A DNA stretch of 63,654 bases, counting the filler, from Folioceros fuciformis (taxonomy: Eukaryota), in the NCBI GenBank assembly GCA_049999805.1. It is 14 parts of 14 records of this genome, joined end to end, with 100 filler letters (N's around TTAATTAATTAA, not from the genome) between each part and the next. Parts side by side here need not be neighbours in the genome. Positions count along the whole stretch, not along the records: positions 45,874 to 51,593 come from JBNGIO010003723.1; 13 more parts are not named here. One strand, written 5' to 3'. The stretch's first letter is position 1; every line of letters begins with the position of its first letter. A program made the translations under genes and the position numbers. The notes under the pieces were generated by a model that did no database searches, was not told the origin of the DNA, and saw only the letters and a program-made list of their open reading frames with translations. This document shows positions 9,297-50,709 of this stretch, one piece after another.

Positions 9297-10655
9297 ATGG
9301 CCACTCGCACCAACTTCTACAAGAACACTGCGTACTCCTACGCACAGGAATTTGACCTGACCTCTACCATTGAAAATCTTGAGAACTACAACATCGCCAC
9401 CGGAGCTGCGTCGATTCCAAGGTTGGATGCATCTGGAAGGGAAGTGAGGAGCGGAAGAGAGCGATTCATTGCGCAGGGGAGCGCGAAGAGGCAAAAGTTT
9501 GAGTCCAAGGACACCAGACCACCCATTGACGAACCTCCCGCAGTGGTATCGCACGAAGAGTACGTTGAGCAAGCCAGGACGAGGTTGCGGGAGACCAGGT
9601 CGCTGCGCAGAACTGAAGGAAGTGATGGAGAAGCTTATGTTTCGGGCGGGAATGAGAGAGTAGAGGGGAGATTAGGGGGGAGAGTCTCGCCTGAACACAG
9701 GGCCGACGAGGACGAGTCGGCAGGGAGGGATAGGTATACGAGCAGTGGCGTATTGAAACGGAGGACGGATCAGCGGTTCGCAGGTCCTGGAGAGCCTGTC
9801 TGTGTGGTTTGTGGAAGGTACGGTGAATATGTTTGTGCAGAGACGGACGAAGATGTATGCAGCGCGGAGTGTAAGGATGAGCATCTACAAGTGCGGGCGG
9901 ACGCAGAAGTTGAAAGTCTGGCAGGTAGTGGAAACTCTTTCACGGTCCCTACTCTGCATGCAGAAGCTTTGCAACCACTGGAGCTGGAAGCGAGTGGTGG
10001 GGAGAACGTTGACCATTGGGAGGGCATCATACAGAGCAGTCTCTCCACTTACCGATGCTGGAAATGCATGCGACCTGGTCACCTAGCCATTGATTGCACA
10101 GCGGCGGCTAGACTTCCACCACCGTTTGCTGCTCAACCAACAGCTCAGAACAGTCGAGGACAGCAGGATGACTATGAGCACACCCGCAGGAGGGACTTGT
10201 CCAAGCTCTACAAGCGATGCAAGGAGATAACGTCAGCATCCCTTTCAGCAAAGTGTAGCTTGTGCACGGAGACAGCAAATTTAGGGTTTTGCTTGGAATG
10301 CTCCAGCATTTTGTGTGACAGTGCTGGTCACCTTGCTCGGCATGCACTGGAAAACCCGTGGCACAGGCAATACTATTCGTACAAACTGCAACGGCTCATC
10401 AAGTGCTCTAAGGGGACCTGCCCTGTGACGGATATAGGGGAGCTCTTCCCATGCAGCTACTGTATGAGCAAGGCCTTCGACAAAAATTACAACATGTACC
10501 AAGCCAGTTGGAATCCAAGAGGGTTGAAAATCATCTACAACTCCATCTGCTGTGAGGATCACTTCGAGTGGCACCGCATGAACTGTCCCAGCGCTGCCAC
10601 TGTGGAAATTGGTTTGGACCTTGGCAGCAAACATCTAACGGAGCTCCTCTTCTGA
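9297..10655 (+). CDS. Intronless 452-aa multi-zinc-finger protein (HIT-type ZnF, CCHC knuckle, further Cys/His clusters), function unknown
   Basis: Uninterrupted ORF with gccATGG start context. Contains CVVCGRYGEYVCAETDEDVCSAEC (zf-HIT-like), CWKCMRPGHLAIDC (CCHC), CSLC...CLECSSILCDSAGHLARH and a C-terminal CCEDHFEWHRMNC. Confidence 0.85.
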   Translation: MATRTNFYKNTAYSYAQEFDLTSTIENLENYNIATGAASIPRLDASGREVRSGRERFIAQGSAKRQKFESKDTRPPIDEPPAVVSHEEYVEQARTRLRETRSLRRTEGSDGEAYVSGGNERVEGRLGGRVSPEHRADEDESAGRDRYTSSGVLKRRTDQRFAGPGEPVCVVCGRYGEYVCAETDEDVCSAECKDEHLQVRADAEVESLAGSGNSFTVPTLHAEALQPLELEASGGENVDHWEGIIQSSLSTYRCWKCMRPGHLAIDCTAAARLPPPFAAQPTAQNSRGQQDDYEHTRRRDLSKLYKRCKEITSASLSAKCSLCTETANLGFCLECSSILCDSAGHLARHALENPWHRQYYSYKLQRLIKCSKGTCPVTDIGELFPCSYCMSKAFDKNYNMYQASWNPRGLKIIYNSICCEDHFEWHRMNCPSAATVEIGLDLGSKHLTELLF

Positions 10656-11682
10656 AACCTCTCTGCACGTCGGGGAGCTCGAAACTCCCTCAGGCTGTTG
10701 CTGGCAGTCATTTAGCATTACCCAATGTCTTGCAGATATCATGTCAGCGAGCTCAGTGAATGACATGAATCTGCAGAATCTCGTCGCATGAGGCTGCCAC
10801 GGTGCAGGACTTCTGAACTCTCTGTCTTGCTAAACCCGAATTAGTCCCCAATTCCCAAAGCGATTCACTACCATTCGAAGCCACTTCTTTCAGGGAACCA
10901 GTCCGTCCTGCAGGCAGCTGTAATTTTTCAAGATGTGTATAAGGGCAAAGTGTTATTTTCCCGGGTAATGACACAAAGATGATACCGTTGGCCCACTGGC
11001 TTTCTGGCTTTCAACACAAGCAAGCTGGCCCAGCGTGCCTTCATCATAGCAACCCTCGTAGCGTCACATAACTATTACAACTGACGTGAGTGAGAATATT
11101 CATTGTGTAAAATCATTATGATAAGTAGAATAAGTTTGTCAACTAAAATAATAATATCTAAAAAATATTCAAAAGTTATATTTTTGGAATATTATTACAT
11201 AGTTGTTGATCATCTTAATATCACTTAGTATTTATACTGGTCTTTATAAGACTTGATATTTTGTATAATAATTTACCTATATTAATATTTTAGTGATGAT
11301 TTGATTATATCACTCATGTTATAATGTTACGCTAATTTCTCATTGGTATAATATCATTTTAATAATATAAATATTACAGATTATTATTGGTCTAAATTCA
11401 TAGGGTTTCTTACAACCAATTGACTCATGCTCATTTGATTGCTAAATGATTATGACGGTTTACTCATGTTCATTTAATTGCTAGATAGTTATGAAATCTT
11501 TGAAACTTACAATTAGTCCACAAACACAACACAAAAAATCAATCATCTAGCAATATCAAGGATAATGAGTAGACAATGGAGATGTAAGTTGATCATAGCA
11601 ATATGTCTAGGCCTTCAAGAATTGGCAAATGGGTATCCNNNNNNNNNNNNNNNNNNNNNNNNNNNNNNNNNNNNNNNNNNNN

Positions 11683-11694
11683 TTAATTAATTAA
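11683..11694. other. Artificial six-frame-stop contig linker TTAATTAATTAA inside N runs (first of 13)
   Basis: The same 12-mer flanked by ~44 N on each side occurs at 11683, 16884, 20672, 24220, 27922, 37224, 39987, 42381, 44569, 45818, 51638, 59035 and 60986. Confidence 0.97.
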
Positions 11695-13147
11695 NNNNNN
11701 NNNNNNNNNNNNNNNNNNNNNNNNNNNNNNNNNNNNNNCGGCGGGGCCGTGTCGTGCCGTCGCTAAATGAGGGACGGGCGTTGACCACGGACATGCCGGG
11801 TGCCGGGTGCCGGGTGCCGGGTGGGTGCACTGCCGGACAGCGCAGCTTCCTGGGCTTGGATTGTCATGCGTATATAACATGCCCACCCCACATACTCATA
11901 CATGAGTACACATGATGCAAATCTGAGCATCTCGCATTTTTACAATAAAATAATATTCATGTGAGGATCTTGTGTTATAATAATAATAATAATATAAATA
12001 CTCGATGTATGCTACGTGAGGATCGTACACCCTTGGAATCAAGCAATACAATAAGCTATCTACTTTCGTTGCCGTTAATGTAGGAGGTATTGAAGAATAC
12101 TGGTTTTTTTACACAACATATGTATCAAATTAAACACAATGATATGTTTCAATTGTAGGAAAATCCGTGCTTAACGGACTCGAATAAGACGACTTCTTCT
12201 TCGTCGTCGTGTTGCTTCCTGGACGGGTCGAGGTCCTGACTCAGGGGCTCGCGGANNNNNNNNNNNNNNNNNNNNNNNNNNNNNNNNNNNNNNNNNNNNN
12301 NNNNNNNNNNNNNNNNNNNNNNNNNNNNNNNNNNNNNNNNNNNNNNNNNNNNNNNGTGTGAGCCCGAGCCCGAGCCCGAGTCCGAGTGCGAGTGGGAGAC
12401 CGAGTGGGAGAGGAAGTCCGATGAGGTGGGCAAGGGGGAAGGAGGCCAGGTTGGCTTGGATTGGCTCGCGTGATGGGGCGATGCACACACACAATGCTGG
12501 TCGCCACGTGCCTGGCCCTTTCAACTTGGCTGCGAAGGACGTTACGGACAGGCAGCAACTTGCCCCAGGCCGGGCCGCCCCCTCTCTTTCTACCATATCA
12601 CTTGCAGAGAATGACAGCCTGCCCGCCTGCATCCCTGCATTTGCGCCTGCAACTGTGGATTCCTTCCTTCCACACACCTTGCGGTGGAAGGTGCTCAGGA
12701 AGGTCGCAGCTAGCAACTTGGCCATCATATGGATGGGACTCGGCCCAGGGCTCTGCACCTTCCTGCCTTTGCCTTTGCCTTTGCCTTTTGCCTTGCCTTG
12801 CCTGCCCCTGATGATGTTATTATCTCCTGGCGCTGGCCCCCTTGCCTTGTGCTGCTCTGCACCAGTCCAGCCCCTCAGGGGCCCACAATTGCATATCTTA
12901 GGGGAGAGATACTTATGTTTCTTCTCCTTCCTTTCTTTATTGGTAACCCACTGTGTGAGCATAGGCGGGTGGATTAGATACAGATGCTAACAACAGGCAA
13001 CAAGAGGCCAGGGACCTGGCCCTGCCCCTGGTCCGGGGGCCTGGGGCCTGGACTCTGAAGAATGGGCACCTACCTGGCAGTACCACCAACAACACCGCCT
13101 GTCTTTGTATCATAACATGTGAATAATATTATTAATATAAGCAAGTG

Positions 13148-14147: not shown

Positions 14148-16839
14148 TTAACTTGCCGTGCTCTCCCCTTTTGTTCCACTACCAGCACCACTACCAGACG
14201 CAGCAGGCTTGGGGCCTGGAGATTTGGTTGGGGAGCAATGCCTCTTGGACGTTGGTTCAGCGCTGGGGCTTTGTATGCTGCCCTCTGCATCTGCACCCAG
14301 CTCCACCTCTAACCTAGTTGGACCATCGTCTAGTTTCCTGCTACTACTCTGGCCATCCACTTGAGACCCCTCCGACTCCTCCGTTTCTCTTGTGGGCGAA
14401 GAGGTCTCATTCCCGCTGCTACTGGATTCCCCACCTGCTGCTTCTGCTGCTGTTGCTGCCCCACTACCTCTCCTCTCCAGGACATCCGCCGACGCCGACT
14501 GAGTCAGTGCAAGGGAGAAACCTGGCACAGTTATTCCTCCCACTTTCCTCTTCCTGTTTACTGACCCAGTGTTTGGGCTGCCGACCAAACTGGGTGCCTT
14601 GGTTGAATCACTCTCGCCGCTTGTTGCCCTCCCGACAGGACTACCTTGATCCTGCTCCCTGGTATCTCGGACGCCCGACGACTCGCAAGCACCACCGGAG
14701 GGCCGCCTCAAATCCGAACCCAGGCTCTGGGCTTGCTCTGCTGCCTGCTGCTGCTGCTGCTGCTGCTGCTGGCTACTAGCCCCCGTTGCTACAAGTGGGG
14801 GTCTTGAGAAACTAGCGCCCATTCCATCACTAGTACGTTGCAACTGCACCTCCTTGGATCCGTTTCCAGCATCCTTAGCCCTGAAGTCCATTGCGCTCAT
14901 GAAGTTATAGCTTCCGGACACTGGTGGCTCATGGGTCGAGGGACAAGAATTGTTGCCATTACCATTACCATTCCCATTCCACAGAGACAGCTGAAAGGAT
15001 AGGCTCAAACCACTCGTGAAGCTGTCGGACGCATAGCCCCTTTGAGTCCTCTTGCCCTCCTCCTCCTCCTTGGAGGTCGCGGAGGCAGCTTTCGCACAAG
15101 CTTCAAGGTTCACCCCAAACAGCCTAGTACCAGAAGCAGTGGCTCCTCCAGAAGCTGTACTGGACTCGGCAGTAAGGCGTCTGTGCAAGCCAGAGCCCCC
15201 GTCAGCAGCATTAGCATTGTTGCCCAAAGATCCAACGCTGCCAAGGGAACCCTGAGGCTCCATCACTTCGTCCGAGGAAACGGACACCGCCCCTGGCCGA
15301 GAGTACCTGCTCACTGCTGAAAGTTGGGCCTCTGCCAAGAGCGCTGCTTCAGCGCCATTGGAACCTTTGAATGGTCCAATTTGGAACTGGCTGCCGCCAT
15401 GCGGCCTGAATCCAGCTCCAGCGCCATGAGAGAAAAGACGGGCGAACTGGGCAGCACCCGAGCTTGACCCTGGGTCGGCCGCTATGCCACCACCTTGCAG
15501 TTGCTTGCCGCTTTGGCCTTGAATAGGCCTCGACAACAAGGGAGCCCAGGGCATCGCGCCGGATGTCATCTTGGACGTGTAAGCAGAGTTGGCCTGAGAC
15601 GCGAGCAGGTGATGGTTGTTGCTGGTAGGAGCCGCCGCAGCATGACTGTTTTGGTTGAGCAGGCCTGCTGCTCCCAGCAGAGGAGGGTGTTGTAGTTGCG
15701 GGTTCTGCTGCGGAATCCCAATCCCCCAAGGGCGCAGCGCACTCCTGTCCGTCATCATATTCATGTTCGTCTGAGGGGGACGGCGACGGAAGTCGATATA
15801 GAGCTCCTGGTTAGGCCCCCTCTGGAAAGACACGATGTCTCCCGCATCCAGCTTCTTCTCCTTCACGAATCTGCTCCACCCTTTGGTAAGCACGTAGCTC
15901 TGGCTGCTGTTCCAATACGAGTACCTGAACCTCCATTGCTTGCCCGTCGCGTCCTCGAACGCCAGAGTCTGGCCAGGAGAATTGGTGGAGAGATCCAGCG
16001 GGAAGCACCTCTCAGCGTGCTGCTTTGGAATAACAAGCCTGTTCAGCTTCCCCACGTCACTGGGAGTGACTGCCTTGTCGAAGAGATTTTCCCGCACCCA
16101 GTGGGATCTGGAGGGTGGCATGGCAACCGGATCCGCAGCACCATCCTCTGCGCTGATCCGCGAGAGGCCTGCAGCCTCGGCTGCCCCTCCCTCAACTCCG
16201 GGGTAAGACAAGTGCGAGGGACTGGCAGCTGAATCAAGGGTGGAGACAAGGAAGCACAAATCAGCACTAGCTCACCAGGCATGACGTAGCGCACCGGCAC
16301 CAACACCACGGACGGACCTTGCCAGGCAAAATGAGGAAGGAGGCGTGTGTTACCTAGGAAGGAAGGCGCTGCAGTTGCACGAGAAGAAGAAGAAGAAAGA
16401 TCCTTGCTGTGGTGATGCAGCAGGAGCTGCTGCTGCTGTTGCTGCTGCTGAGCAACAAGAGACGCGCTATGGCTGTGGCTCAGCTGAAGTTGATGTTGCG
16501 TTGCTGCCCTCATGCAGAGGGCTGCCCGGCGGCTATGCTCCAGTTCCTCGTCGTAGGTGTGGCGACGGAGCATGTCCACAATCTGCTCCTTGCTATGAGA
16601 CCTGAGGAACGCTGCCTCGGGATTGGAATCGGGAACAAGAGGGAAGTTGGTCATGGCGTCCCGGCCCCGGAATTTCATGGCAGCACGATCGTAAGCCTTG
16701 GCCGCCTCCTCCTCCCTGTTGAAGGTCCCCAGCCAAACCCGCTGATGCTTCTCGTAGATTTGCGCCCCCCAGCGACCATTCGGCTGGGGCACCACCCCCC
16801 GGTACTGCGACGACGGCAGCTTCCCGTGCTCTGCCTTTC
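14148..16839 (-). CDS. RAV: RAV-family AP2 + B3 transcription factor (5' end lost in gap; one intron 16229-16353)
   Basis: AP2 domain [60 protein letters not shown]3 domain [33 protein letters not shown]...[39 protein letters not shown]; repression motif RLFGVNL. A 125-nt GT..AG phase-1 intron joins the two ORF-track frames in register. Confidence 0.93.
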
Positions 16840-16939: not shown

Positions 16940-19830
16940 TGCTTTTGAGTGTATAGCAACCTGGATTCCTATGGTACAGAAACAAACTGGCAATTTTGTG
17001 AAGTGTTTTCGCACTGACAACGGTGGGGAGTTCATTGGACATCGATATGATGAGCTTTTTTCAGCGCATGGGATTATCCGTCATTTAGCCATTCCATGTA
17101 CTCAACAACAAAACGGTGTTGCTGAGCGTAAGAACCAGACCCTGATGGGTATGACTAGGAATATGCTTGGATGGGCAGGTTTGCCCAAACACTACTGGGC
17201 AGAAGCTATCTCAACTGCTACCTACATACTTAATAGAGTGCTNNNNNNNNNNNNNNNNNNNNNNNNNNNNNNNNNNNNNNNNNNNNNNNNNNNNNNNNNN
17301 NNNNNNNNNNNNNNNNNNNNNNNNNNNNNNNNNNNNNNNNNNGAGCTCTTTTCAAAGCATGGGATCATCCGTCAGTTAGCCATTCCATATACTCAACAAC
17401 AAAACGGTGTTGCTGAGCATAAAAACCAAACCCTAATGGGTATGACTAAGAGTATGCTTGGATGGGCAGGTTTGCCCAAACACTATTGGGCATAAGCTAT
17501 CTCAACTGCTACCTACATACTTAATAGAGTGCTGAATAATGCAGTACCTAGAAAAACTCTATATGAGGTGTTCTGGAGGAAGAAGCCGAGCTTGTTGCAC
17601 TGGCGGGCGTTTGGCTCCACAGCATATGCTTATGTCCCTAAACAGAAGAGGCGCAAGTTAGATGATAGGGCTAGACCCCTGCTTTTCCTTGGCTATTCAG
17701 AAGTCTCAAAGGCTTACAAGCTGTTTGATCCTGCAACCTATAAAGCGATTGTGGCACGAAGTGTAACCTTTGATGAACTTACTACTCCTAGAAGGCAGGC
17801 TTCCACGCAGTTTGGGACAGAGTCCACAGTTCCAGTGATTGATGAGTCACGTATATCATATGAAGAAAATAACATAGGCCCCCTACAACAAGTTGTTCGC
17901 CAACCATTAGTGCATTACCCTGATTCTGATGGCGAGAATGATCTACCCACCTTGGTTGGAGATGAGACTGGTGAAGAGACTGCAGTTGCACCACATGTTG
18001 CTCACGGTGCCTTCGATCTGAATGATGAACACTCAGAGTCCACTGGTTCTCTCCAGGATACTGATGAGATAATTGAACTGTCAGATGGTGAGTTCCCGGA
18101 TGACCGAGCAGGGAGTAGCTGCAGACGAGCTTGTTGTGGTCTCTGAGCCTAGATATCCTACATGGGAGAGGCGTTCCCGTGAACATTGAACAGAACCACC
18201 TTATAAGGCAATTGATTTTAGACAAGGTTCTCGGGCTCATGTTGCAGACTTCATAGTACCTATAGTTCGTCTGGATCCACAAACTTATGACGAGGCTGTT
18301 AATGGCCCTGACGGTTCTCACTGGCGTGCGTCCATAGACGATGAATATGCTTCTCTCATAAAAAAACAACACCTAGGAGCTTATGGATTTGCCTGTAGGA
18401 CGGAAACCTATTAGCTGCAAATGGGTGTTCAAAACAAAGTTGAAAGCAAATGGGACAATCGCCAGATACAAGTCTCGCCTAATTGCTCGTGGTTTCAGTC
18501 AAATTCCTAGCATTAACTATGGTGACACATCTTCTCTAGTGGTGAAGCCTCCCTTTTATCGGTTTCTCTTGGCGATGGCCGCAGAGTATGATCTGGAAGT
18601 TCAGCAAATCGACGTTTATACTGCCTTTCTGTATGGAGAGCTCAAGGAGACCCTGTATATGCAACAACCACTAGGGTACATTAGTCCAGAGAATGCCAAT
18701 AAAGTGTCAAGCTGCTGAAAACGATTTATGGTCTTAAGCAGTCACCTCGAGCATGGTATAAGCGGATAATGAAGTAGTTGCACCAACTTGGTTTCCTGCA
18801 GTCGCCAGCAGACACCAATGTCTTTTATTCTGCTGTTGATTCGCTGTTTGTCATCCTTGCCCTGTATGTCGATGATTGTGTGCTTCTAAGCAACAACCCT
18901 AATCAACTTCAGAAGGTGAAGGCTATGCTGCGTCAGGAGTTTGAGATGAATGACCAAGGTGATTTACCGTTTTGCTTGGGTATTCAGATCCTGCGCAACC
19001 GTTCCCATGGTCAGATCATTTTGCATCAAACAAAGTATATTAAGGAGATTCTGAAACAATTTAATTTGGATGAGGCCCGACCAGTTGCCACTCCCTCTGT
19101 AATGGGGGAGAAACTTACCTCTTCTATGTCTCCTCAGAGTGATTGTGAACTTGAGAACATGCAACTTGTTCCATATGCAGCGGCAGCTGGGTGCCTGATC
19201 TTTTTGGCAAACTGGACACGACCTGGTATCAGTTACTCTGTCTCAATTGTCTCCCAGTTCTTGAAGCCTTCTGGACGGCAGCACTGGGCAGCAGTTAAGA
19301 GGATTTACCGATATCTTAAAGGCACCATTTCTTATGGTTTGCAACACACCAATAGTGGGAGTAATAGATGTGAACTTACCTCCTTCGCTGATGTTGATTG
19401 GGCCTTTGATGCTGACACCAGGAAGAGTTTGTCTGCATATTGTTTTCTCTTGGCTTCTGGTACTGTTAGTTGGAGCTGCAAGAAGCAGACTTCTTTGGCA
19501 CTTTTGTCCACTGAAGCTAAATATAGAGCTCTCAATGATGCCTATAAAGAAGCTGAGTGGGGAAGACAATTTCTGGAGTCAGTTAATCAAGCTCAGACAA
19601 GTCCAACACTACTGCTATGTGACAATATGAGCACAATTGCCCTTGTCTCCAACCCTAGGTTTCATGCCAGAACCAAGCATATAGAACTCTATCATCACTA
19701 TATAAGGGATGCAGCTGAATGAGGCATAGTCAAGGTCGAGTATGTTAGCACACATTTAAATACTGTAGACATACTTACTAAAGGGCTCTCCAAAGCCAAA
19801 CACTTTCAACACATGGCTGCTTTAGGTCTC
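16940..19830 (+). mobile_element. Ty1/copia pol fragment (integrase-RT-RNase H), pseudogenised
   Basis: Integrase FRTDNGGEF...QQNGVAERKNQTL...YWAEA; RT KPISCKWVFKTK...YKSRLIARGFSQ, QIDVYTAFLYG, LALYVDD; RNase H FADVDWA...[31 protein letters not shown]. Several stops and frameshifts. Confidence 0.95.
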
Positions 19831-26506: not shown

Positions 26507-27877
26507 TGTTCGCGTGAGCATAGAGAAGTGATTAGATTAGATTGAGCGTCACGGGACATGTCTTGTGAACTTGACTAGGCGACGGTTATTAGTTGTAACC
26601 GTCACCTAATCCTCTAACCTTAACCTGAACTAATAAAAGGTAATTAAATATGACCTGTCACTCCCACTCAGGTGTAGGGTTAGTGTAGTTAAGATATATA
26701 TATATATATATAAATTGCTCTCGCCTATAAACTTAAAGAAAAAGAAACTTAGAATAAGAAACTTAGAACCCTAATCTAAAGAAGTTCAACTCAAAGGGTC
26801 GTCTTCATCTTCGTCTTCGTCCTCGCGCGCCGCCACTGCCTTGCCCTTGCCGATTGCTGGATCAGGAGCTGTACTCCACTTCAGGTCCTTGCCCGACGCG
26901 CGGAGCCCGAGCCCAGCTGCGTGTTAGTAGTGCTTCACACGTCCAAGCCCCTTCGTCAAGATATCTGCGGTCATCAGCTCCGTAGGACAGTATTCCACTC
27001 TGACTGTTCCAGCATTCACCACTTCTCTGATGTAGTGGTGCTGGACTTCAACATGTTTGGTGCGCGCGTGGAACCTGGGATTCATAGTCAGTGCTATCGC
27101 ACTTTGATTATCAAGAACAGGATCACCGGCATGGTTTGTGGCACTCCAAGCTCTGTGAGAGCTCCCACTGTCCAGGTGACCTCCTTGCATGCCTCTGTGA
27201 GGCTCTTGTACTCAACTTTGGTTGAGGACAGCGCAATTGTGGGCTGCCTCCTGCTGCTCCAGCCAATGGCGCCTCCAGCAAGCAAAGTCACATAGCTGGA
27301 GATACTCTTCCTGCTATCAGAGTCTCCGGCCCAGTCTGCATCGTTGTAAGCCACCATTTGCAAAGCTTTGTGTGCTTTTGAATTGTAAAGGATGCCCCAG
27401 TCCACAGTGGCTGCAATATACCGGTACAGCCTCGTCATGAGATCATTATGCTTTGCATTCGGGTTGGAGACGAATCTTGAGGTCAGTCCATTGGTGAAGG
27501 CCAGGTCAGGCCTCGAGCCTATCATTAGATGCATGACTGACCCATTCTTGGAGGGATACTGCTCCACAATTGCTGCTTCCTCCTCAGGTATACTCCCTAC
27601 TTGAGCCACATATTTCGTGTTTTGTTCTACAGGAGTAGAAATAGGCTTGCATTTAGTCATTCCATAGCGTTCTAATATTTGCATTGCATATTTTGTTTGA
27701 TGCAGGAAGATGGTTCCTGCTTCCCGATCTCGCTGCAACTGCATGCCTAAACAAAAAGTAAGTGCCCCTGCTGCTGTTATCTTAAACTCGCTGCTCAACT
27801 GACCCTTTAGGATGAAGATCATTCTAGGCAAGTTGCTTAAGATAATAATATCATCTACATAAATGGCTAACGCCAAG
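26507..27877 (-). mobile_element. Ty1/copia 3' part: RT-RNase H, PPT and probable short 3' LTR
   Basis: LAIYVDDII...SRPDLAF...YNDADWAGDSDSRKSISSY...ALSSTKVEY; after a frameshift, [30 protein letters not shown]...TADILTKGL. Minus-strand PPT TGAGTGGGAG (26670-26661) is followed by TG at 26660. The LTR end is tentatively AACA at 26510-26507. Confidence 0.9.
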
Positions 27878-40147: not shown

Positions 40148-42336
40148 TGTAGGGTTATTAAAGCCCAATGTGCTTAGGCTAATGTGTTTAGTCTAAGATT
40201 AGTGTCTAGTTAATGTGCTTAGACTAATGTTTTAGTCTAAAGATTAGTGTCTAGTTAAGTATCATTAGTTTAGATTAGCTTAAGCTAATCTGTAGGAAGC
40301 TTCTTGCGCAGCTTCCTGTGAGCTTCTCGTGAAGCTTCATAGGGAGCTCTTCTAGAGGGTATAAATACCCCCTTGAGCTCCCTTGCCAACCACTCTCAAT
40401 GTGACCTCTTTTTCTCCTCTCCTCTCTGCCTCCTCTTCTCCTCTCCTCCACCATGCTCCTCTAGTGATCCTACAAGTGGTATTAGAGCAGCTTGTGGAGC
40501 AAGACCATGAAGATGGTCATCTAAGAGGGGAAGGGGCGCCACGCAGGCGCCACCTCAATGCCATGCAGGTGCCACCTAGGCACCATGTGAGAGCCACTCG
40601 GGCGCCACCTCGGCGCCACCCAGGCACCCCTTGGGCGCCACGCGGGCTCCACCTGGGCGCCATCAGGNNNNNNNNNNNNNNNNNNNNNNNNNNNNNNNNN
40701 NNNNNNNNNNNNNNNNNNNNNNNNNNNNNNNNNNNNNNNNNNNNNNNNNNNNNNNNNNNNNNNNNNNCGATTGACGAGTGCCGGAAAGTGAACAAATCGT
40801 AGACGCCGGGAGCGAGTGTGTGGGCGCCGTATTGACCGCTGCTAAAGAAGTCAGGATCTCGATCAGACGTAGGAGGACATTCCTGTTATGAGCGACAGAG
40901 GCCCAAGTGGTGGACATACGATTCGGAAGAAGTTGTGAGGGTAACATGTAGAATCTACATTTCATTTCGACCAATTTCAAACTAGCCTTTTGGTTGATTT
41001 GGATCGATTTTGAAGCATGATGTCCTCAGAAAACGTCATGTTCAATATCGAGAAGTTAGATGGTACTAACTTCCCATTCTGGAAAGAACAAGTGTATAAT
41101 GTTCTAGTACAGAAGAAGCAGATCAAGCCCATCAAGCTGCTAGGAGTGAAACCTGTTAGCATGACTCAGGATGAGTGGCAGGATCTATATGAGCTTGCTA
41201 GGTCTACCATCATGCTAACAGTGTCGAAGTCGGTCTACTTCAACGTGAAAGACAAGACCACAAGTTTCGAGCTATGGCAGAAGCTGTGTGACTTGTATGA
41301 GAAGCAAAGTGCAGCTTCTCAGGTGTATTGGTTGAAACAACTGGTGGACTTGAAGATGAAGGAAGGGACGAGGATGTCCGATCATCTGAATGAGTTCAAT
41401 ACCATTTTCAGCCAGCTCTCATCTCAAGGTATCTCGTTCCTAGATTCCGTGAGAGCTATGTTTCTGTTGGTCACATTACCAGAGAGCTGGGACACCTTCC
41501 GTACGGCTCTGAGTAATTCCGCTCCTGCCAGTGGTCTTACCGTTGTAAATGTAGAAGGTAGCCTGTTAACAGAGGAGGTGAACAGGAAGAATATGGAACC
41601 TTCGAAAGGTTCTAATGCCCTCATGGTGAGAGGAAGGTCCACTTCAAAGGGGAAGTACGAGGAGCGAAGTTCTTCCCGTAGCAAATCTCGTAGTCGTAAC
41701 AATGTTGAGTGTTACCATTGTCACAAGAAGGGTCACATCAGAAGGGACTGCGAGAAGTTCAAGAAGGAAAAAGGCAAGGAGAAGAAGCAGAGCGACAACA
41801 AGGCAGATTCGAGTATCGAACGTGATGAGGTGAACTCTGTTGACGATGAAGATGTTCTTATCTCTTCTTCTTTTGGTTTTGCACAACTGACAGCCATTGA
41901 GAGTCACTTATTCTCTAATTGGATAATTGACTCTGGAGCATCTTTCCATGTTACTCCGCATAGGAAGTGGTTTAGCACTTATGATGCTACTAGGAAAGGA
42001 TGTGTTCGGCTTGGAAATAACTACGCGTGCGAGATAGCAGGCGTTGGTGATGTGCAGCTGAAGTTCGACAACGGATCTTCATTCACACTAAAGGATGTCA
42101 GGCATGTTCCGAAGTTGACCAAAAGCATGATTAGCGCAGGGCAGTTGGATGACGCTGGCTACCATTGGTGGTTTGGAGATCGTTCTTGGAAGACCTCCAA
42201 AGGTTCTCTTGTGATAGCTCGTGGATCGAAGTGTGGCACTTTGTACTCACTTCAGGTAACCACTGTCAAGGATCATGTGATTTGTGTAGGGGAACAGCCA
42301 AGTGTTTCCTTGTGGCATAGTCGGTTAGGACATATG
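40148..42336 (+). mobile_element. Ty1/copia element, 5' part: LTR, tRNA-iMet PBS and gag-pol
   Basis: The LTR ends ...CCTACA at 40474 (start TGTAGG at 40148 or TGTAGGA at 40291). TATAAATA at ~40360; PBS TGGTATTAGAGC at 40477-40488, one mismatch to the canonical TGGTATCAGAGC. Confidence 0.9.
41017..42336 (+). CDS. Copia gag-pol polyprotein, intact up to the gap
   Basis: IEKLDGTNFPFWK; gag core; CYHCHKKGHIRRDC knuckle; protease WIIDSGASFH; pre-integrase LWHSRLGHM. No stops in 440 codons. Confidence 0.93.
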
Positions 42337-42436
42337 NNNNNNNNNNNNNNNNNNNNNNNNNNNNNNNNNNNNNNNNNNNNTTAATTAATTAANNNNNNNN
42401 NNNNNNNNNNNNNNNNNNNNNNNNNNNNNNNNNNNN

Positions 42437-42602: not shown

Positions 42603-44624
42603 TGTCTATACAATTCATAAATATTTATATTAGTTTATTTTAAAGAACTTACATATGTAGTAATTATATGAACGAATAATTTATTTACAAAGTTTTATGT
42701 TCTAGATTATTTAAAAAATAGTCCTACCTATTTGACATATAATTATCACATACATGGTGTATACTTCAAAAGTGATATATAACTACAACATAGATGACTT
42801 CATATTTCATGCATATTCATAACATGATTCATTCAGATTTGACACCTATTTTTAAGTAGATAAGGACAAATCTTATGATCTATATTACCATGACTTACAT
42901 GGACTNNNNNNNNNNNNNNNNNNNNNNNNNNNNNNNNNNNNNNNNNNNNNNNNNNNNNNNNNNNNNNNNNNNNNNNNNNNNNNNNNNNNNNNNNNNNNNN
43001 NNNNNATATTACCATGACTTACATGGACTCTCCTAAGGTGTCCTTGGGTAGATAAGTTTGTTTATCATGTTTATTGTATGGCGTACTCACAATGTTTCTT
43101 TATGTATGGTTTTAGAGAACTCAACTAAATTGGAAGTTAAAAGCCCAAGATCACTTCAAGCGTGCCTACAAATGGGCATAGATCCCAAGGAATTGATCCA
43201 CAGGTAATCAATTATATGATATAGAATCAAAGTATAATATATTGCCTTTGTGCCATAGACAAATAGATCAATTGTAGTTAAGAAGGCAAGCTATGTATGG
43301 CTATTTGTCCTATAATAGGATGCCCATGTATTAGAAACTACGATTTTTTTGGTGAAAAAGGATTGTCCAGCGAACTTCAAAAATTGAAGTACACACATTA
43401 CGAAAGCCAGAGAAGAGGTAACAGATATTTTTATAACAAATTTGATAGTATTTCAAAGATATAAATATACTATATTGTTCAACTATGCATGTGTTTGGCT
43501 TGTATTATAAAATCATGAAGCCCTCCTAAACTTTTTTGACTTAGGTAGAGAAATAGGAGACTATCATTGAACTTATATAATTTGTAAGTCAAAAGTCCCA
43601 TGTCTATCATTGAGGCTCCTCTTGTTGTCTCCTCTTTGACTAATTTGGTACGCCAATTCTATAATTGATCCTCCCACCCTCCTTCTCTCTCTTCTTTTTC
43701 CTTCTCTATTTAATCCAAAATTCATCATGGTAGTGTTGTATAGGTAAGAACTAGACATTATGAGTCCTAATGCTTAAGTTATTGACATAAGAATAAAATA
43801 AGATTGGCTTATCATGGAGAGCCTCAAAGGGAGGAGGTAGGCCATTGTAGACTTTTCTTTTTTGGTGATTTTTGTTTTTCCTTTTTTGTGAGAATTGAGG
43901 GACGAGAGGGAATGAAGTTGCTATAGTATATAGGATACATGGAACCAATAAACCAAAAGTGACAATACAGGAGGAATAAGATAAAAAGTCAAGGAGAGAT
44001 AGGTAACGCATTAAGGTTCACCATCCAGAGAACCACTTTAATACACCACATTGATGTGTCAAGCTTCTCTCATTCAAGGGCACTCCAAAGGCATCGGTAG
44101 GAAGGTCCGAGGCACGACAAGTGCAAACAAAGTACATGGGATCCAATAGCATTAGAAATTCCCCATTTGGGCTATTCTAATGTCGCTTGATTCTGCAGGC
44201 CTCTATAGTTTGGGGGCCCAAAGTAAGAAGAGATTTGGCCTCTGCCACTCTTGGCAACCCAATAGAGAGAGATCACTAGCGCTCCAGATCATTTCGTCGA
44301 AGGAGGAGCAAGCAAGAGATTAGAACAGCATGGGACCAAGAGGAAATCGCATGAAGCGTAGAAGTTGAGGAAAATCCCAAAAGCAGCGGCAAGAACGATG
44401 CACATGCTGAGGGGATTGGGGGCTGCATTTGACTCATGTGCTCTTGATGTTGAGATTGGGGGCTGCATTTGACTGCATCACACTCCTATTTGTTAGATAC
44501 ACAGCAGTTGCAATAGCCTCACCCNNNNNNNNNNNNNNNNNNNNNNNNNNNNNNNNNNNNNNNNNNNNTTAATTAATTAANNNNNNNNNNNNNNNNNNNN
44601 NNNNNNNNNNNNNNNNNNNNNNNN

Positions 44625-45773
44625 CTCCATCTGTCCATACACAACAAGGGCCTCTTGGCCGAGTCCTTGCTGTGCATACCCNNNNNNNNNNNNNNNNNNN
44701 NNNNNNNNNNNNNNNNNNNNNNNNNNNNNNNNNNNNNNNNNNNNNNNNNNNNNNNNNNNNNNNNNNNNNNNNNNNNNNNNNGGCTGTCCATGTCACCACA
44801 TCCTTCGAGGCCATGCCGTCGAAAACCTGGCGGGCATCTTCCAGCTCACCACATTTTGCATACATGTCCACCAGGCAGTTTCCCACGACTACATCATCCA
44901 GGAGTTCTCTCTTGACAATCTGTGAGTGAAGCTCCCTGCCCTTCTGCAACGCACCAGTGCTTGAACACGCCTTCAGAAGGCAAGCAAAAGTAACACGGTC
45001 AGCCAAAACGAGGCCCGCCTTCTCCATTTGTGCATATACAACAAGCGCCTCTTGGCCGAGTCCTTGCTTTGCATACCCAGCAATCAGGGCATTCCATGTC
45101 ACCACATCCTTCGCATCCATCCTGTCAAAAACCTGGCGTGCATATTCCAGCTCACCACATTTTGCATACATGTCCACCAGGCAGGTTCCCACCAGTACAT
45201 CATCCAGCAGACCTCTGTGGACAATCTGTGAGTGAAGCTCCCTGCCTTTCTGCAAGGCACCAGTACTTGCACACGCCTTCAAAAGGCAGGCAAAAGTAAC
45301 ACGGTCAGCCACCACCAGGCCCGCCTCCTCCATTTGTCCATACACAACAAGTGCCTCTTGGCCGAGTCCTTGCTGTGCATACCCAGCGATCAGGACCGTC
45401 CATGTCACCACATCCTTCGTGTTCATGCTATCAAAAACCTGGCGTGCATCTTTCATTCGGCCACATTTTGCATACATGTCCACCAAAGAGCTGTTAACAA
45501 ACAAGTCAGTACGGAAGCCACTGCGCAACACGTCGCGGTGCACTGTTCTGCCAGATTCTAAGTCGCCAGCAAATGCACAAGCTTGAAGGGCGGCTACAAA
45601 GATATAACCATTCGCCTTCACTTCTGACCTACGCATTTCATGGTACAGTTGTATGGCCTCCTTCGGCTTCCCGTGCTTCGCATGTGCAGAGATTATGGAA
45701 AACCACATGAAGACATCCGGTTTCCATACCCTGTTGAACACATCCATCGCCTCCTTTAGCCTACCTCCACATG
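44625..45773 (-). CDS. PLS-class PPR protein fragment, close paralogue of 47309-50257 (both ends in gaps)
   Basis: Repeating P-L-S triplets VVTWxxLIAGYAQQGLGQEAL / VTFACLLKAC.STGALQKGRELHSQI / LVDMYAKCG in an open frame. Confidence 0.9.
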
Positions 45774-47308
45774 NNNNNNNNNNNNNNNNNNNNNNNNNNN
45801 NNNNNNNNNNNNNNNNNTTAATTAATTAANNNNNNNNNNNNNNNNNNNNNNNNNNNNNNNNNNNNNNNNNNNNAGGTAATCGAGTGTAATATAATATATA
45901 AATATATACATAAGTTATATACATAAAAATTTACTTTTCTCTTATGGTATTTTTCATTAATACCGAAAATATATATAAACATATGTATATATTGGTTTAG
46001 ATCTGATATTAAATCTCAAGTGATGTTAAAATAATATTACGGACGGAGGTTCCATTATTGTACTCAATACTCTGTTCTATCTCACATGGTCTTCAATATC
46101 CCATATTTGTATGATTATATTATTTAAAATTAATAAATATTTATGAAACTCTATTTTATGAGTTTATTTTATTACTTGTATTTTTANNNNNNNNNNNNNN
46201 NNNNNNNNNNNNNNNNNNNNNNNNNNNNNNNNNNNNNNNNNNNNNNNNNNNNNNNNNNNNNNNNNNNNNNNNNNNNNNNNNNNNNNGTATTGTTGGGATC
46301 ACTTTATCACCAAACAGCAGTACTGTACGTGGATCATATCCATGGCGAGCTATGTCCTCCAATCACGTTCGGGGGCATCGCCAGGTGAACAAAGTTGGAG
46401 ATCCTCTCCATAATTGAATAAAAAGGTGTTTCCTTCCTCCAGACCACCTCTGGCGCCTGAAGCAAGCTGGCCTGCCGGATTGGCCGACCAGGAGCATGAA
46501 GCGCATCCAGAGGCCCAGCGGATCAGCTGACGTTTTCTGGCCTTCGGAAAGCGCCAGTGAAGAATTGGAGGAAGAGACCGCGGTACAGGATCGGGCTCAA
46601 AACATAGGCCTCGGCGATGGCAGGCGAGCTGCCTGGTGGACGTGCACGCAAAGTGAGTAAGTTAGGCCAAGCGGGTAGGAAGGGTGTCAGTCAAGCCAAG
46701 CGGTCAGGGAGGGTGAGTAAGTCAGGCATATCGGTTAGGAAGGAAGGAAGGACGGGACTCCCTTTGCAGAGCGTGTCTGCTACGCAATCTCAGCGGCCGC
46801 GCGCTCCCTCCAGACTCATCTTCCCTCCGCTTTGGACTGGCTACGGCCTCAGTCCTTCGTCCCGCTTCCCGCGTTCCCTTTGCCACTCGAGATTTGACGG
46901 CGGATGGATGCTTACAGTCGTCGTAGCTGGTCTTCTGGCTGCGCGTCTGTTGCGGACGTGAGATCAACGAGGGAAGGGAAGCATCCTGCTGCCGCCGTTG
47001 GTGCGCGGGGATCCCTGGCAGGGAGTGGTCTTCGGTGCGCTGCCTGGATGTTAGGGCACGTCGATCGGGTCGGGCAATGTGCCAGTTTAAGTTATCCCTG
47101 TCGGAAACGGAACCTTTTCCTCGCCATGAAAACGAACAGCTCGACCTACACCACTCGACGAAAGGAAACTTGGACGTGGAGAGAAATGAATATGGCGCAA
47201 ACTCAGATTCCCATCTGTAGCCCGTTCGTGCTCTCCTTCTTGCTCCATCTACGAGAATTTATGAGGTGAATTTCCGTGACCGTGGAGCCCGTTAGCGATG
47301 CCTGAACC

Positions 47309-50257
47309 ATGGCCACAGCGAAGGTGGAAGCTTCGTTACTCCTCTTTGCACGACATTGGCTTTCGGGCCAGACTCAACAAATAGGTGCGTGTACGGGGAT
47401 TGAAAGTCGAGATGCTGCGAACCTCATCTTAGGGAGTCGATCCCTGGCAAGCAAAGCCTCCAGGTGCAGCAGTGTCAGGCGGCCAGCACTTCCACCTCTA
47501 AGAGATTCCGTGAGCAGGGACGGGTTCCCCAGCGATGGTCGTTGCCATGAGCGGGATCAGGAGCACTTGTGGCAGCAGTTTTTCTTGGACCCTACCATGT
47601 GGTGGGACAACAGGCGAGATAACAAGCGATTCCATTCTCCTCACTTCCGGCGCAAGGGGTCCGGCGAGGTGCTGTTGTTGGACAACATGTTTAAGCCAAC
47701 TTGGGTTGATGAGCAGCTCATTTCCTTGGATATGCAAGTTGGCCGTGACGCCTCTCCTTCCGAGTGGAGCACTGAAGATAATTTTGAACCTGGAAGGCGT
47801 GCAGGCTCGGGAATGGGGGCCAGGTGTAGCAGTGTTACCGTGAGCACGTTGTGTCGGCAGGGGAGGCTTTCTGCTGACGTTCGGGTCCCCGAAACTCTAG
47901 CGGACACAGACTCTCCCGTTTCTCAGTTTTTTTTTTTTTTTGTCCTGAAACTGTGTACGGCCAAGAAGGATTTGGTTTTGGGGCGGCGAGTTCATGATCT
48001 CATTATTAAACTTGGATACGAGTCGAATGCATACCTGGGGAACCATATCTTGCGCATGTACGCATGTGGGGGCAGACTAGAGGAGGCCAAGGATGTGCTC
48101 ACCAGGGTGGGGAAACCAGATGCCTTCATGTGGTCTTCCATAATATCCGCATACGCTAAGCAAGGGAAACCCAATGAAGCAATGCAACTTTATCATGAGA
48201 TGCGTAGGTCAGGAGTTAAGGCGGATGCCCACGTCTTCGTAGCTGCCCTTCAGGCTTGTGCATTCGCTGCTGACTTGGAATCTGGAAGAAAAGTGCACCA
48301 CGATGTGGAACACAGTGGCATTCCAACTAACTTGTTTATCGGGAGCTGCCTGGTGGACATGTATGCAAAATGTGGAAAAATGAAAGATGCACAGAAGGTC
48401 TTTGATAGCATGACCACAAAGGATGTGGTGATATGGAATGCCCTGATTGCTGGGTATGCACAGCAAGGACTGGGCCGAGAGGCGCTTCTAGTGTATGGGC
48501 AAATGGGCGAGGGGTGCCGCATTTTGGCTAACCATGTTACTTTTGCTTGCCTTCTGAAGGCCTGCGGAAGCACGGGTGCCTTACAGAAGGGCATGCAATT
48601 GCATTCACAGATTGTGGAAAAGGGACTGCTGGATGATGTCGTGGTGGGCAACAGCCTGGTGGACATGTATGCAAAATGTGGCAAAATGGAAGATGCACGC
48701 AAGGTTTTTGACAGCGTGAAGAGAAAGGATGTGGTGACATGGACTGCCCTGATATCTGGCTATGCACAGCAAGGACTCGGCCAAGAGGCTCTTGTTGTGT
48801 ATGAAAGAATGGAACAGGAGGGCCTGGTTGTGGCTAACCCTGTTACGTTTGCTTGCCTCTTGAAGGCCTGTGGAAGCACTGGTGCCTTACAGAAGGGCAG
48901 GAACCTGCACTCACAGATAGTGGGAAAAGGACTGCTGGATAACGTAGTTTTAGGCAACTGCCTGGTCGATATGTATGCTAAATGTGGTGAACTGGAAGAA
49001 GCACGCCAGGTTTTTGACAGCATGAACACAAAGAATGTGGTGACGTGGAATACACTCTTAACTGGATATGCACAGCAAGGACTTGGCCATGAGGCGCTTG
49101 CTGTGTACGAGCGGATGGAGCAGGAGGGCCTGATTGTGTCTGACGATGTTACCTTTGCCTGCCTCTTGAAGGCCTGTGGAAGCACTGGTGCCCTACAGAA
49201 GGGGAGGCAGCTGCACTCACAGATAGTGGAGAAAGGACTGCTGGATAACGTAGTCTTAGGCAACTGCCTGGTTGATATGTACGCAAAATGTGGCGATTTG
49301 GAAGATGCACGCCAGGCCTTCGAAAGCATGAACACAAAGGATGTGGTGACATGGAATGCCCTGATATCTGGATATGGCACTTGTGATGAAGGTCACAGGG
49401 CGCTAGCTTGTTTTGAGGAGATGTTGGCCGCCGGCATTCAGCCTAATGCAGTTACTTTCACTTGCCTTTTAGTAGCCTGCAGTCACGGGGGACTTGTCCA
49501 TGACGGTCGCAAGCACTTCAATTCCATGGCGGAACAGCATGGCATCACACCTACTCTTGAGCATTATAATTGCATGATTGATCTCCTTGGACGTGCAGGC
49601 CAGTTAGATGCGGCACAGAAGAAGCTATTGCAATGTGAGGGCCAAAGTAATGTTGTGGGTTTAATGTCTCTGTTGAACGCCTGTAAAATTCACGGGGATT
49701 TGGAGAGGGCGATGTGGTGTTTTCAAAGCATTCTTAGGCTGGACCCCAAGCAGGCGTCCGCATATGTGCTTATGGCCAACGCCTTTGCAGATGCTGGCAG
49801 GTGGACCGATGTAGACAGGATTGAAGCACAAAGATCAGCAGCAGGAGCTAACAAGAAGCCTGCAATGGCAACCATTGAGGTGAAAAATCAGGTACACAGA
49901 TTCTTGGTGGGAGAAAGGAGAGAGGATATTGCGCTTAAGGTAGAGAGTACGAATGCACGCCTGAAGCAGGAAGGAGGCCACGTACCAATCACAAAGTTGG
50001 TGCTGAAGCCAATGTCAGAGAAGGAAAAGGAAGATGTGCTATGTGGGCACGCTGAAAAGCTAGCTCTGGCGTTTGGTCTTTTGAACACTCCGAGTGGGAC
50101 CCCTCTGGTGGTGACCAAGAATCTGCGCATGTGCAGTGACTGCCACAGTTCCACGGAGATCATGTCAAGGCTTGGACAAAGAGACATCGTGGTGAGGGAT
50201 GGGTACCGTGTGCATCGATTCGCTGCTGGTTGTTGCAGTTGTAAAGGTCGACCGTGA
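47309..50257 (+). CDS. 982-aa PLS-PPR protein with E1/E2 and KP-type DYW domain ending in GRP (candidate organellar U-to-C editing factor), with N-terminal OSB-like PDF motif
   Basis: Intronless ORF with a transit-peptide-like N-terminus and ~17 PLS motifs (VDMYAKCG every 306 nt). DYW domain: KKPAMATIEV (49853), HAEKLA (50048), KNLRMCSDCH, CSCKGRP*. Confidence 0.95.
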   Translation: MATAKVEASLLLFARHWLSGQTQQIGACTGIESRDAANLILGSRSLASKASRCSSVRRPALPPLRDSVSRDGFPSDGRCHERDQEHLWQQFFLDPTMWWDNRRDNKRFHSPHFRRKGSGEVLLLDNMFKPTWVDEQLISLDMQVGRDASPSEWSTEDNFEPGRRAGSGMGARCSSVTVSTLCRQGRLSADVRVPETLADTDSPVSQFFFFFVLKLCTAKKDLVLGRRVHDLIIKLGYESNAYLGNHILRMYACGGRLEEAKDVLTRVGKPDAFMWSSIISAYAKQGKPNEAMQLYHEMRRSGVKADAHVFVAALQACAFAADLESGRKVHHDVEHSGIPTNLFIGSCLVDMYAKCGKMKDAQKVFDSMTTKDVVIWNALIAGYAQQGLGREALLVYGQMGEGCRILANHVTFACLLKACGSTGALQKGMQLHSQIVEKGLLDDVVVGNSLVDMYAKCGKMEDARKVFDSVKRKDVVTWTALISGYAQQGLGQEALVVYERMEQEGLVVANPVTFACLLKACGSTGALQKGRNLHSQIVGKGLLDNVVLGNCLVDMYAKCGELEEARQVFDSMNTKNVVTWNTLLTGYAQQGLGHEALAVYERMEQEGLIVSDDVTFACLLKACGSTGALQKGRQLHSQIVEKGLLDNVVLGNCLVDMYAKCGDLEDARQAFESMNTKDVVTWNALISGYGTCDEGHRALACFEEMLAAGIQPNAVTFTCLLVACSHGGLVHDGRKHFNSMAEQHGITPTLEHYNCMIDLLGRAGQLDAAQKKLLQCEGQSNVVGLMSLLNACKIHGDLERAMWCFQSILRLDPKQASAYVLMANAFADAGRWTDVDRIEAQRSAAGANKKPAMATIEVKNQVHRFLVGERREDIALKVESTNARLKQEGGHVPITKLVLKPMSEKEKEDVLCGHAEKLALAFGLLNTPSGTPLVVTKNLRMCSDCHSSTEIMSRLGQRDIVVRDGYRVHRFAAGCCSCKGRP

Positions 50258-50709
50258 GAATTATGCAGGGGTACCCAGAGCCCGAGTGTGTACGCCAAAG
50301 AACTTTGAATCTTCTTTTCCGGCTGAATGTGCTTGCTTAATCCGATGGAAAATATCCTAGATCGGGATTTCGAACCCAGCATATTTAACGCATCGCGTTC
50401 ACCCCAAATCCGGACGTTTAAAAGGAAAAAGCCACGTATATAAAAAGTGACAGCGACTGAGAAGATATTGTTTCAATTCATGGCACAATCTTTCGCAACC
50501 GTCTCAACCGGCCGAGCCCGCTGCTGCTGTCTTTGCTCCTTCACTGTCTCCGCAGATGACTGTGATCTCTAGCGTCTCTTCCTGTAAGCCCAGAAATCCA
50601 GATTTCTAGGCCACGAGGCGAGCTTTCTCCAGGGTGACATGAATGATCTCTTCTGCATAATAAAAAAATTCTCGACGTTGCATGTCATGATCGCCTCTGT
50701 CCGGGGTGG

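Follow-up and report, generated by a model that had tools for sequence, protein, structure and literature searches.

Why should a candidate RNA-editing factor carry, ahead of its pentatricopeptide repeat (PPR) array, a motif that belongs to plant proteins binding single-stranded DNA (ssDNA)? The question is raised by a gene of Folioceros fuciformis (NCBI GenBank assembly GCA_049999805.1), which lies at 47309..50257 on the plus strand of the stretch analysed here, in the part that comes from JBNGIO010003723.1. This stretch, hereafter referred to as the window, is 63,654 nucleotides long and consists of 14 parts of 14 records joined end to end, filler included. The gene encodes a PPR protein with a C-terminal DYW:KP-type domain, and a preliminary description of its sequence had pointed to an OSB-type PDF motif at 47567..47719, fused to the N-terminal side of the repeats. 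The PDF motif is the ssDNA-binding part of OSB proteins (PMC6963530, PMC13393729), and that of AtOSB1 has been described as sufficient for ssDNA binding (PMC6963530, citing Zaegel 2006). The answer that we propose, and that we hold to be rather probable on the evidence of sequence comparison, is that the module acts as a generic accessory binder of single-stranded nucleic acid, an OSB-type PDF module placed on a PPR-DYW:KP factor.

OSB homology and domain order of the protein

By sequence comparison, the segment is established as a true homologue of the OSB PDF motif. The check that had been suggested earlier, a hidden Markov model (HMM) made from OSB motifs, was carried out with 60 PDF motifs of 40 proteins that bear an SSB domain. 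It gives a single match in the protein, at aa 85-137 (47561..47719, +), with 55.7 bits and an E-value of 2e-19 (Z=1), whereas the highest score among 2000 shuffled versions of the N-terminal 200 aa is 6.7 bits. The 51 residues quoted in the preliminary description are the exact translation of 47567-47719 (+), corresponding to aa 87-137, and are contained in this match. The identification made there is thus borne out by the OSB-only HMM, by homologues that carry the OB (oligonucleotide/oligosaccharide-binding) fold, and by the names under which many homologues are deposited.

The latter two lines of evidence come from wider searches. With aa 81-144 as the query against 1.84 billion cluster representatives, phmmer returned 298 proteins at E<=1e-3, 42 at E<=1e-10 and 2 at E<=1e-30, and many of these proteins contain several matched stretches. 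The best 150 of the 298 were examined; 14 of them were set aside as already being PPR proteins by blastp, and a Pfam scan covered the remaining 136. In 42 of these 136, an N-terminal SSB/OB fold (PF00436) is present and the PDF match lies C-terminal of it, which is the OSB architecture of an OB fold followed by one or more PDF motifs (PMC6963530, PMC13393729). A profile search of clusters at 90% identity gave 1359 matches at E<=1e-3 among 8000 candidates scored, and many of the best 120 carry the source names 'protein OSB1', 'OSB2' or 'OSB3'. It is important to note that the homologues are found only by sensitive methods: word-index searches with the 51-aa motif and with aa 60-230 returned no matches, and exhaustive HMMER and a profile query were required. 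A sequence search of the Protein Data Bank (PDB) returned 0 matches at E<=10.

Compared with the PDF motif of OSB1-OSB4 (Zaegel 2006 via PMC6963530, PMC13393729), the segment is a module of the same size, ~53 aa, on the same skeleton, W..F..P..WWDNR..K.....P.F..K.....L.......P.WV...L. One to three tandem copies are possible in OSBs and in PPR fusions alike. The two contexts differ in arrangement: in OSBs the PDF motif is C-terminal of the OB fold, whereas in the window protein it is N-terminal of the PPR array. The window copy itself differs from OSB motifs in reading PHF for PDF, LL for LW, and N for a conserved K.

Some proteins carry the motif in neither context. The dinoflagellate Effrenium voratum has multi-repeat proteins (P0016 and its cluster members, with P0016 down to E 2e-17), and similar entries occur in ENA, JGI and Logan data (P0004, P0029, P0090 and P0166); all have 7-12 PDF-like stretches and no OB fold. 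Since the Effrenium proteins carry such stretches, the PDF motif is not strictly plant-specific. Two further proteins, P0052 of Coptis chinensis (1526 aa; a kinesin-motor protein with three N-terminal PDF stretches) and P0065 of Striga hermonthica (1063 aa; named 'Interactor of constitutive active ROPs 2', with three PDF stretches and a weak SSB match at E 8.5e-5, below Pfam's cut-off), may be merged gene models or additional fusions.

The gene that carries the window copy is one uninterrupted open reading frame (ORF) of 982 codons followed by a stop. The ATG at 47309 is taken as the first codon because the frame opens only at 47306, immediately past a stop. Pfam recognizes PPR (9.3e-89, in 10 stretches), PPR_2 (3.4e-86), E_motif (5.4e-16, aa 795-857) and DYW_deaminase PF14432 (1.2e-31, aa 890-980) in the 982-aa protein; in aa 1-214, and with the PDF motif as the query, it finds no family, PF00436 included, even at E up to 10. 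With tandem PPR motifs followed by an E motif, the protein is by its sequence a PLS-class PPR editing factor, and because it is devoid of the OB fold it is not an OSB. From the N-terminus onwards, the order is a presequence-like region, the PDF module, a linker, the PLS-type PPR array, the E motif and the DYW:KP domain.

The placement of the motif between a transit-peptide-like region and the first PPR, as earlier described, agrees with structure prediction. The N-terminal region, aa 1-74 (47309..47530, +), is poorly conserved among relatives and predicted by AlphaFold2 to be disordered, with predicted local distance difference test (pLDDT) values below 50 in a 350-aa model, and presumably acts as an organellar targeting sequence. 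In the same model, the folded PDF module, aa 77-147 (47537..47749, +), has pLDDT values of ~84-93 except in the loop block aa 101-110 (74). It is followed by a non-conserved linker, aa 148-170 (47750..47818, +), which again falls below 50, shows low contig cover and leads to the PPR superhelix. PLS-type helical repeats then extend over aa 174-857 (47828..49879, +) and end in the E motif, with helical hairpins from aa 174 and pLDDT >90 from about aa 210. For the motif alone (64 aa, with a 17-sequence alignment), the prediction has a pLDDT of 86.2 and consists of a helix, three short strands and a helix. In short, the PDF module is predicted to be a separate folded α-β3-α unit on a flexible tether.

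Within this unit, helix 77-93 is followed by strands at 98-100 (WWD), 113-115 (FRR) and ~121-122, and then by helix 131-147. WWD is found in the first strand, F-R-R in the second and V-L in the third; canonical copies have F-K-H in place of F-R-R, and A-L, right before the conserved Trp, in place of V-L. Strands 1 and 2 are separated by the basic NR..K loop. A sheet face that is aromatic and basic in this way would plausibly serve as a nucleic-acid surface. H112 and L123, two of the atypical residues discussed below, stand at the edges of strands 2 and 3 in the model.

At the other end of the protein is a DYW:KP-type domain of 133 aa (aa 850-982; 49856..50254, +), identified by the PF14432 match and by reading its residues. 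'KPAMA' replaces the PG box, HAE...CSDC, K88 and M92 are present, and the domain ends in GRP; residues are numbered by our own count from the K of KP, which puts M at 92 as stated in PMC9478123. Hornwort DYW:KP proteins comprise the DRH and GRP subgroups, named for their last three residues; the Ala of HAE is found in KP domains alone, M92 is characteristic of them, and KP domains of 133 aa exist (PMC9478123). Lys88 has been termed essential (PMC11845758). The window domain has all the features of the GRP subgroup (HxE(x)nCxxC, KP, HAE, M92, Lys88, 133 aa and the GRP end), and its catalytic end (HAE, CxxC, K88, M92, GRP) looks intact from the sequence. Because these features match the subgroup, the gene can be regarded as an apparently intact candidate for a U-to-C editing factor, of the hornwort GRP type. 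It shares with the GRP-subgroup PLS factors (Gerke 2020, Gutmann 2020 as cited in PMC9478123) the PPR repeats, the E motif, the 133-aa KP domain, HAE, CxxC, K88, M92 and the GRP end; it differs from them by its extra folded N-terminal module, of which the available part of PMC9478123 makes no mention.

The PDF-PPR architecture in seed-free land plants

The fusion is not confined to this gene: ferns, lycophytes and Sphagnum provide at least 46 further cluster representatives that share it. Among the 150 phmmer representatives examined, 15 match the PPR part of the window protein by blastp at E<=1e-5, and one more, P0088, is a PPR protein by Pfam. Among the best 120 of the 1359 profile-search matches, 31 contain PPR Pfam families, 27 of these with the E motif (PF20431) and 4 with DYW (PF14432). 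Taken together, PDF and PPR co-occur in 57 of 267 proteins, namely 46 distinct cluster representatives (P0088 included, through its recognition by Pfam and not by blast), 10 further members and the window protein.

The arrangement is constant. In 56 of the 57 proteins, all PDF copies, one to three in number, lie within the first 340 residues and ahead of the PPR array. The exception is P0185 of Diphasiastrum (1362 aa), in which one PDF pair (98-195) and another (636-733) each precede a set of PPR repeats. To judge from this layout, two PDF-PPR genes lying in tandem seem to have been joined into a single gene model, which would indicate that the family forms tandem arrays in Diphasiastrum. By source, the 46 representatives come from Diphasiastrum complanatum (32), Selaginella moellendorffii (1), Sphagnum (2; S. 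compactum and S. jensenii), Adiantum capillus-veneris (2), Ceratopteris richardii (1), Pteridium aquilinum (4) and Logan assemblies (4). As the Pteridium aquilinum entries are ORFs from assembled transcripts, the fusion is present at the mRNA level. No seed-plant PDF-PPR protein occurs among the matches listed, which comprise the top 150 of the 298 phmmer proteins and the top 120 of the 1359 from the profile search.

It had also been suggested that PDF motifs might be enriched in DYW:KP proteins as opposed to C-to-U types, and the C-terminal ends do not support this. Among the PDF-PPR proteins found, a KP/GRP-type DYW end is present only in the window protein and in P0122, and a canonical ...DYW end in six clusters (P0118 of Sphagnum; P0146, P0179, P0205, P0235 and P0237, all of Diphasiastrum), while most of the others end after the E motif and have no DYW domain. 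P0122 is the closest full-length relative of the window protein; the two are 51% identical and align collinearly from the N-terminus as far as the GGRP with which P0122 ends, and their DYW domains are 68% identical.

Constraint on the module is visible in alignments. When the window protein is aligned with four relatives, 14 invariant columns fall inside the motif and essentially none in either flank. The fusion is thus neither a single occurrence nor free of constraint. The best explanation of these sequence data is that PDF-PPR is an old and widespread architecture of seed-free land plants, with one to three PDF motifs, a flexible linker and an editing-type PPR array.

Motif trees were built with the aim of comparing PPR-linked motifs with the others; they rest on 56 columns and most of their forks are poorly resolved. 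Removal of redundancy above 80% identity reduced the 668 motif rows to 424. On a FastTree phylogeny of the latter, 'PPR-linked' as a label requires 10 changes, against a mean of 52.4 for shuffled labels, and none of 500 shuffles was as low. One clade of 60 rows holds 50 of the 55 PPR-linked rows; besides these it contains the OB-fold OSB P0136 and short fragments, of which several continue into a PPR helix. A quick IQ-TREE analysis (LG+C20 with posterior mean site frequencies) was based on 110 rows, comprising the 55 PPR-linked rows, 10 'fragment' rows (nine short ones and P0136) and 45 random others, with eleven long-branch multi-repeat proteins left out. Here the label requires 14 changes, against a shuffled mean of 37.0, and the window motif groups with those of P0122 and P0048 (SH-like approximate likelihood ratio support of 87).

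When the 64 PPR-linked and fragment rows were held together (P0136 left out, and the nine fragment rows having been joined to the PPR-linked group after the first tree was seen), the approximately unbiased (AU) test gave a p-AU of 0.63, and the constrained tree was 8.44 log-likelihood units better than the free quick tree. A single ancient PDF-PPR fusion is thus not rejected; it is compatible with these sequence-based trees but does not follow from them. The PPR-linked motifs also have a signature of their own, FF.DP, by which they differ from OSB motifs, and they cluster apart from most of these. F7 is found in 81% of them (L in 73% of the others), F8 in 93% (45% of the others) and D10 in 83% (N in 58% of the others); the window copy carries all three.

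As to earlier literature, no paper on a PDF-PPR fusion was found in a search made mostly without subscription papers, in agreement with the earlier impression that the fusion had not been described. The hornwort genome paper PMC7027989 makes no mention of OSB, 'PDF motif', DYW or GRP. A 2026 survey of OSBs kept only proteins with both an OB fold and a PDF motif (PMC13393729), a requirement by which PDF-PPR fusions would have been discarded. The novelty lies in the combination, not found described, of a known class of editing factors with a known motif.

Proposed function of the module and competing explanations

The proposed function can be set out in a few steps. The PDF module would stand at the N-terminus of the mature form of a nuclear-encoded, organelle-targeted PLS-class PPR protein, a candidate U-to-C editing factor, and would bind single strands of nucleic acid irrespective of their sequence. 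A PPR tract runs parallel to the RNA that it binds, so that its N-terminal repeat contacts the 5'-most base. Given this polarity, a PDF module on an N-terminal tether of ~25 residues would be located on the 5' side of the PPR footprint. From there it could hold on to RNA upstream of the cis-element, or to the DNA strand that is displaced as the nucleoid is transcribed, and either contact would be expected to raise affinity or dwell time at the target. Because the PDF motif of AtOSB1 suffices for ssDNA binding, the PPR-linked module in general most likely binds single strands. The module in the window, however, is probably weakened or altered relative to its canonical paralogues, because three hallmark residues are replaced in it (K->N, D->H and W->L).

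These replacements were assessed against column frequencies from 86 PPR-linked and 581 other motifs (667 in total). PPR-linked motifs keep W4, P11, W14, D16, R18, K21, P27, D28, F29, L38, W39, P46 and W48 at 94-99%, and the window copy keeps 10 of these 13 most conserved residues (W4, P11, W14, D16, R18, P27, F29, L38, P46 and W48). PHF for PDF, noted from the beginning, was read correctly and is one of three departures at near-invariant positions. The window has N105 where K is found in 99% of PPR-linked and 96% of other motifs; H112, with the neighbouring P and F kept, where the D of 'PDF' is found in 97% and 94%; and L123 where W is found in 95% of both. At these positions, N, H and L occur in 0-1% of the 667 other motifs. 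The motif of P0122 is likewise degenerate (RDF, CW, DIR).

These departures weigh against the proposed function, and the window module may not bind nucleic acid at all. Further points stand on the same side. OSB1 prefers ssDNA to RNA, which would favour contact with the nucleoid over contact with the transcript. The predicted fold of the module matches no solved nucleic-acid-binding fold, so the proposed function has no independent structural support: Foldseek against the PDB gave a best E-value of 2.8, and VIA-align against 48,161 chains gave a best Z of 3.6, with none at Z>=5; this missing match shows neither novelty of the fold nor a difference from known folds. In addition, the motifs from which the HMM was made had first been collected as matches to the window motif, and their identity as OSB motifs comes from their independent SSB domains and source names. 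The proposed function and its rivals overlap, and the probabilities that we attach to them do not sum to one.

Contigs of public runs help to separate the window copy from its family. Contigs from Logan that are at least 85% alike were taken from four runs (X1, X2, X3 and X11; library type unrecorded), and contig counts are a rough proxy for gene number. T>G at 47676, which turns Leu into Trp, is found in 29, 56, 48 and 41 contigs of X1, X2, X3 and X11, respectively, and A>G at 47699 in 47, 82, 60 and 54. The loose-end consensus of the X1 contigs at 47626 reads Pro-Asp-Phe-Arg-Arg-Lys. Because paralogous contigs in four runs read the canonical residues, the N/H/L departures are a property of the window copy. 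Many such contigs cover the motif bins (47505-47746) but far fewer the linker bin (47747-47867), as would be expected if four organisms had dozens of paralogues whose motif is canonical and conserved and whose linkers vary freely. Exact pieces from X1 lie on 46900-47459, 49405-49719 and 50232-50500, and none of them bridges the motif to the PPR array.

One alternative is that the module is functional in the family while the window copy is decaying and idle, in which case the gene, if it works, would be an ordinary PPR-DYW:KP factor. We regard this as rather unlikely. It draws on the rarity of N, H and L (0-1% of 667 motifs) where K, D and W are found at 94-99%, on the canonical residues of the paralogous contigs and on the degenerate motif of P0122, as well as on the report that GRP-type proteins are under-represented in transcriptomes (PMC9478123). 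It is opposed by the 10 of 13 most conserved positions that are kept, by a motif free of frameshift, stop or indel in an ORF intact over 982 codons, by a profile score that still stands at 55.7 bits, and by a confident predicted fold, even if that prediction is driven by the alignment.

A second alternative, raised in the preliminary description and given a similarly limited weight here, is a tether to nucleoids. In that case, the module would act on ssDNA at transcription bubbles, R-loops, or replication and recombination intermediates; it would raise the concentration of the editing factor at the nucleoid and so bring about co-transcriptional editing, with no contact to the RNA substrate. 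The function of the motif in OSBs themselves speaks for such a tether (PMC6963530, PMC13393729). So do the position of the module on a flexible tether apart from the PPR superhelix, and an architecture kept whatever the catalytic end, which would suit a general localization device. The preference of OSB1 for ssDNA counts in the same direction, as does the identity of OSB2 as the plastid pTAC9 component. However, the copy in the window is again without the three hallmark residues.

It is a good deal less likely that the PDF fold has been re-used in PPR proteins as a protein-protein or assembly module, docking on OSBs, nucleoid proteins or editing factors. The signature of the PPR-linked motifs (F7, F8 and D10) and their clustering in trees would suit such a change of role, and so would the scarcity of DYW domains among the fused proteins already counted (27 of 31 with the E motif and 4 of 31 with DYW), since E-class factors need a partner that supplies catalysis in trans. 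Yet aromatic and basic side chains predominate among the residues held in common with OSB motifs (W, W, D, R, K, F, W, W), as is typical of nucleic-acid-binding surfaces. Finally, chance resemblance, an assembly or gene-model artefact, or loss of the segment with the transit peptide is largely refuted and very improbable: a homopolymer of 15 T does lie in the frame, but the OSB-only profile matches at E 2e-19 while shuffles stay at or below 6.7 bits, the single ORF needs no splicing, the architecture recurs in six named genera and in fern transcript ORFs, and the module is predicted to be folded and is conserved, whereas the true N-terminus is neither.

Related systems and neighbouring sequence

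The combination of a PPR tract with a second domain related to nucleic acids has precedents in PRORP with NYN, in PPR-SMR proteins and in OTP51 with LAGLIDADG. In these, the extra domains are C-terminal, are catalytic or derived from catalytic domains, and are attached to P-class tracts, whereas here a small non-catalytic motif is attached to the N-terminal side of PLS-class editors. A more speculative analogy is with the MORF/RIP cofactors of seed plants, which might likewise be seen as an accessory element raising the target engagement of PLS-type PPR proteins; these cofactors, however, are proteins in their own right, which bind L motifs and have no sequence relationship to the PDF module. 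The distribution of MORFs may be complementary to that of the PDF-PPR fusion. One conjecture, which we think rather doubtful, is that PDF-PPR is an ancestral device of land plants, in which a cis-linked, non-specific single-strand binder gives PLS editors the affinity that seed plants obtain in trans from MORF/RIP. If this were true, it would explain why, among the matches listed, the fusion is seen only in seed-free lineages (hornwort-type, Sphagnum, lycophytes and ferns) and across E, DYW:PG and DYW:KP ends, and also why seed plants could do without it.

PLS-class editors have been mined intensively, but chiefly for their repeats and C-terminal domains. Pfam is without a PDF model and the OSB survey required an OB fold (PMC13393729), and for these two reasons the PDF-PPR class would escape notice. 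Its recognition would recast the PDF motif as a mobile module instead of an 'OSB-specific' feature. If the module binds ssDNA or single-stranded RNA, it would physically link sequence-specific editing factors to nucleoids or to unstructured upstream RNA, and such a link would fall in the lineages with the heaviest C-to-U and U-to-C editing. In that case, the PDF module would also be a natural accessory domain to try in designer PPR editors such as those of PMC9478123.

Several other features of the gene and of its surroundings were recorded. The homopolymer of 15 T (47927..47941, +) encodes FFFFF in the coding frame and lies just before the first PPR-like 'LKLC...G..VH' helix. Contigs or reads seem to be cut at 47919-47947, around this run, and a one-base error in its length would break the ORF. 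An intron at this place was considered and dropped, since the reading frame continues uninterrupted and the run falls within a helix typical of a first PPR. Within the PPR tract, 48346..49376 (+) is a tandem array with 3.4 copies of a 306-nt unit (84% matches), equal to one PLS triplet of 102 aa, and the triplets are visible in the translation.

Tblastn over the unmasked part of the window found no second PDF motif, so that the motif is present there in a single copy. A partial PPR ORF made of near-identical triplets is found on the opposite strand at 44569-45747 (-), interrupted by runs of N. Taken with the array at 48346-49376 (+), its sequence suggests recent duplication of triplets and of the gene, with the two genes arranged as a head-to-head pair.

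Further ORFs of the window, at 14151-16121 (-), 9297-10652 (+), 41017-42381 (+), 18925-19719 (+) and 27097-27822 (-), correspond to a B3 DNA-binding domain (E 3.9e-26), zf-HIT, a copia-type gag/pol fragment and two RVT_2 fragments. By this content, the window is an ordinary context of plant nuclear DNA; its overall G+C is 49.6%. Its masked stretches, runs that add up to 2544 N, form 20 groups with a regular pattern of 44 N, 12 bases and 44 N, followed some hundreds of bases on by a run of 100 N (e.g., 11639-11738, 12256-12355 and 44525-44781).

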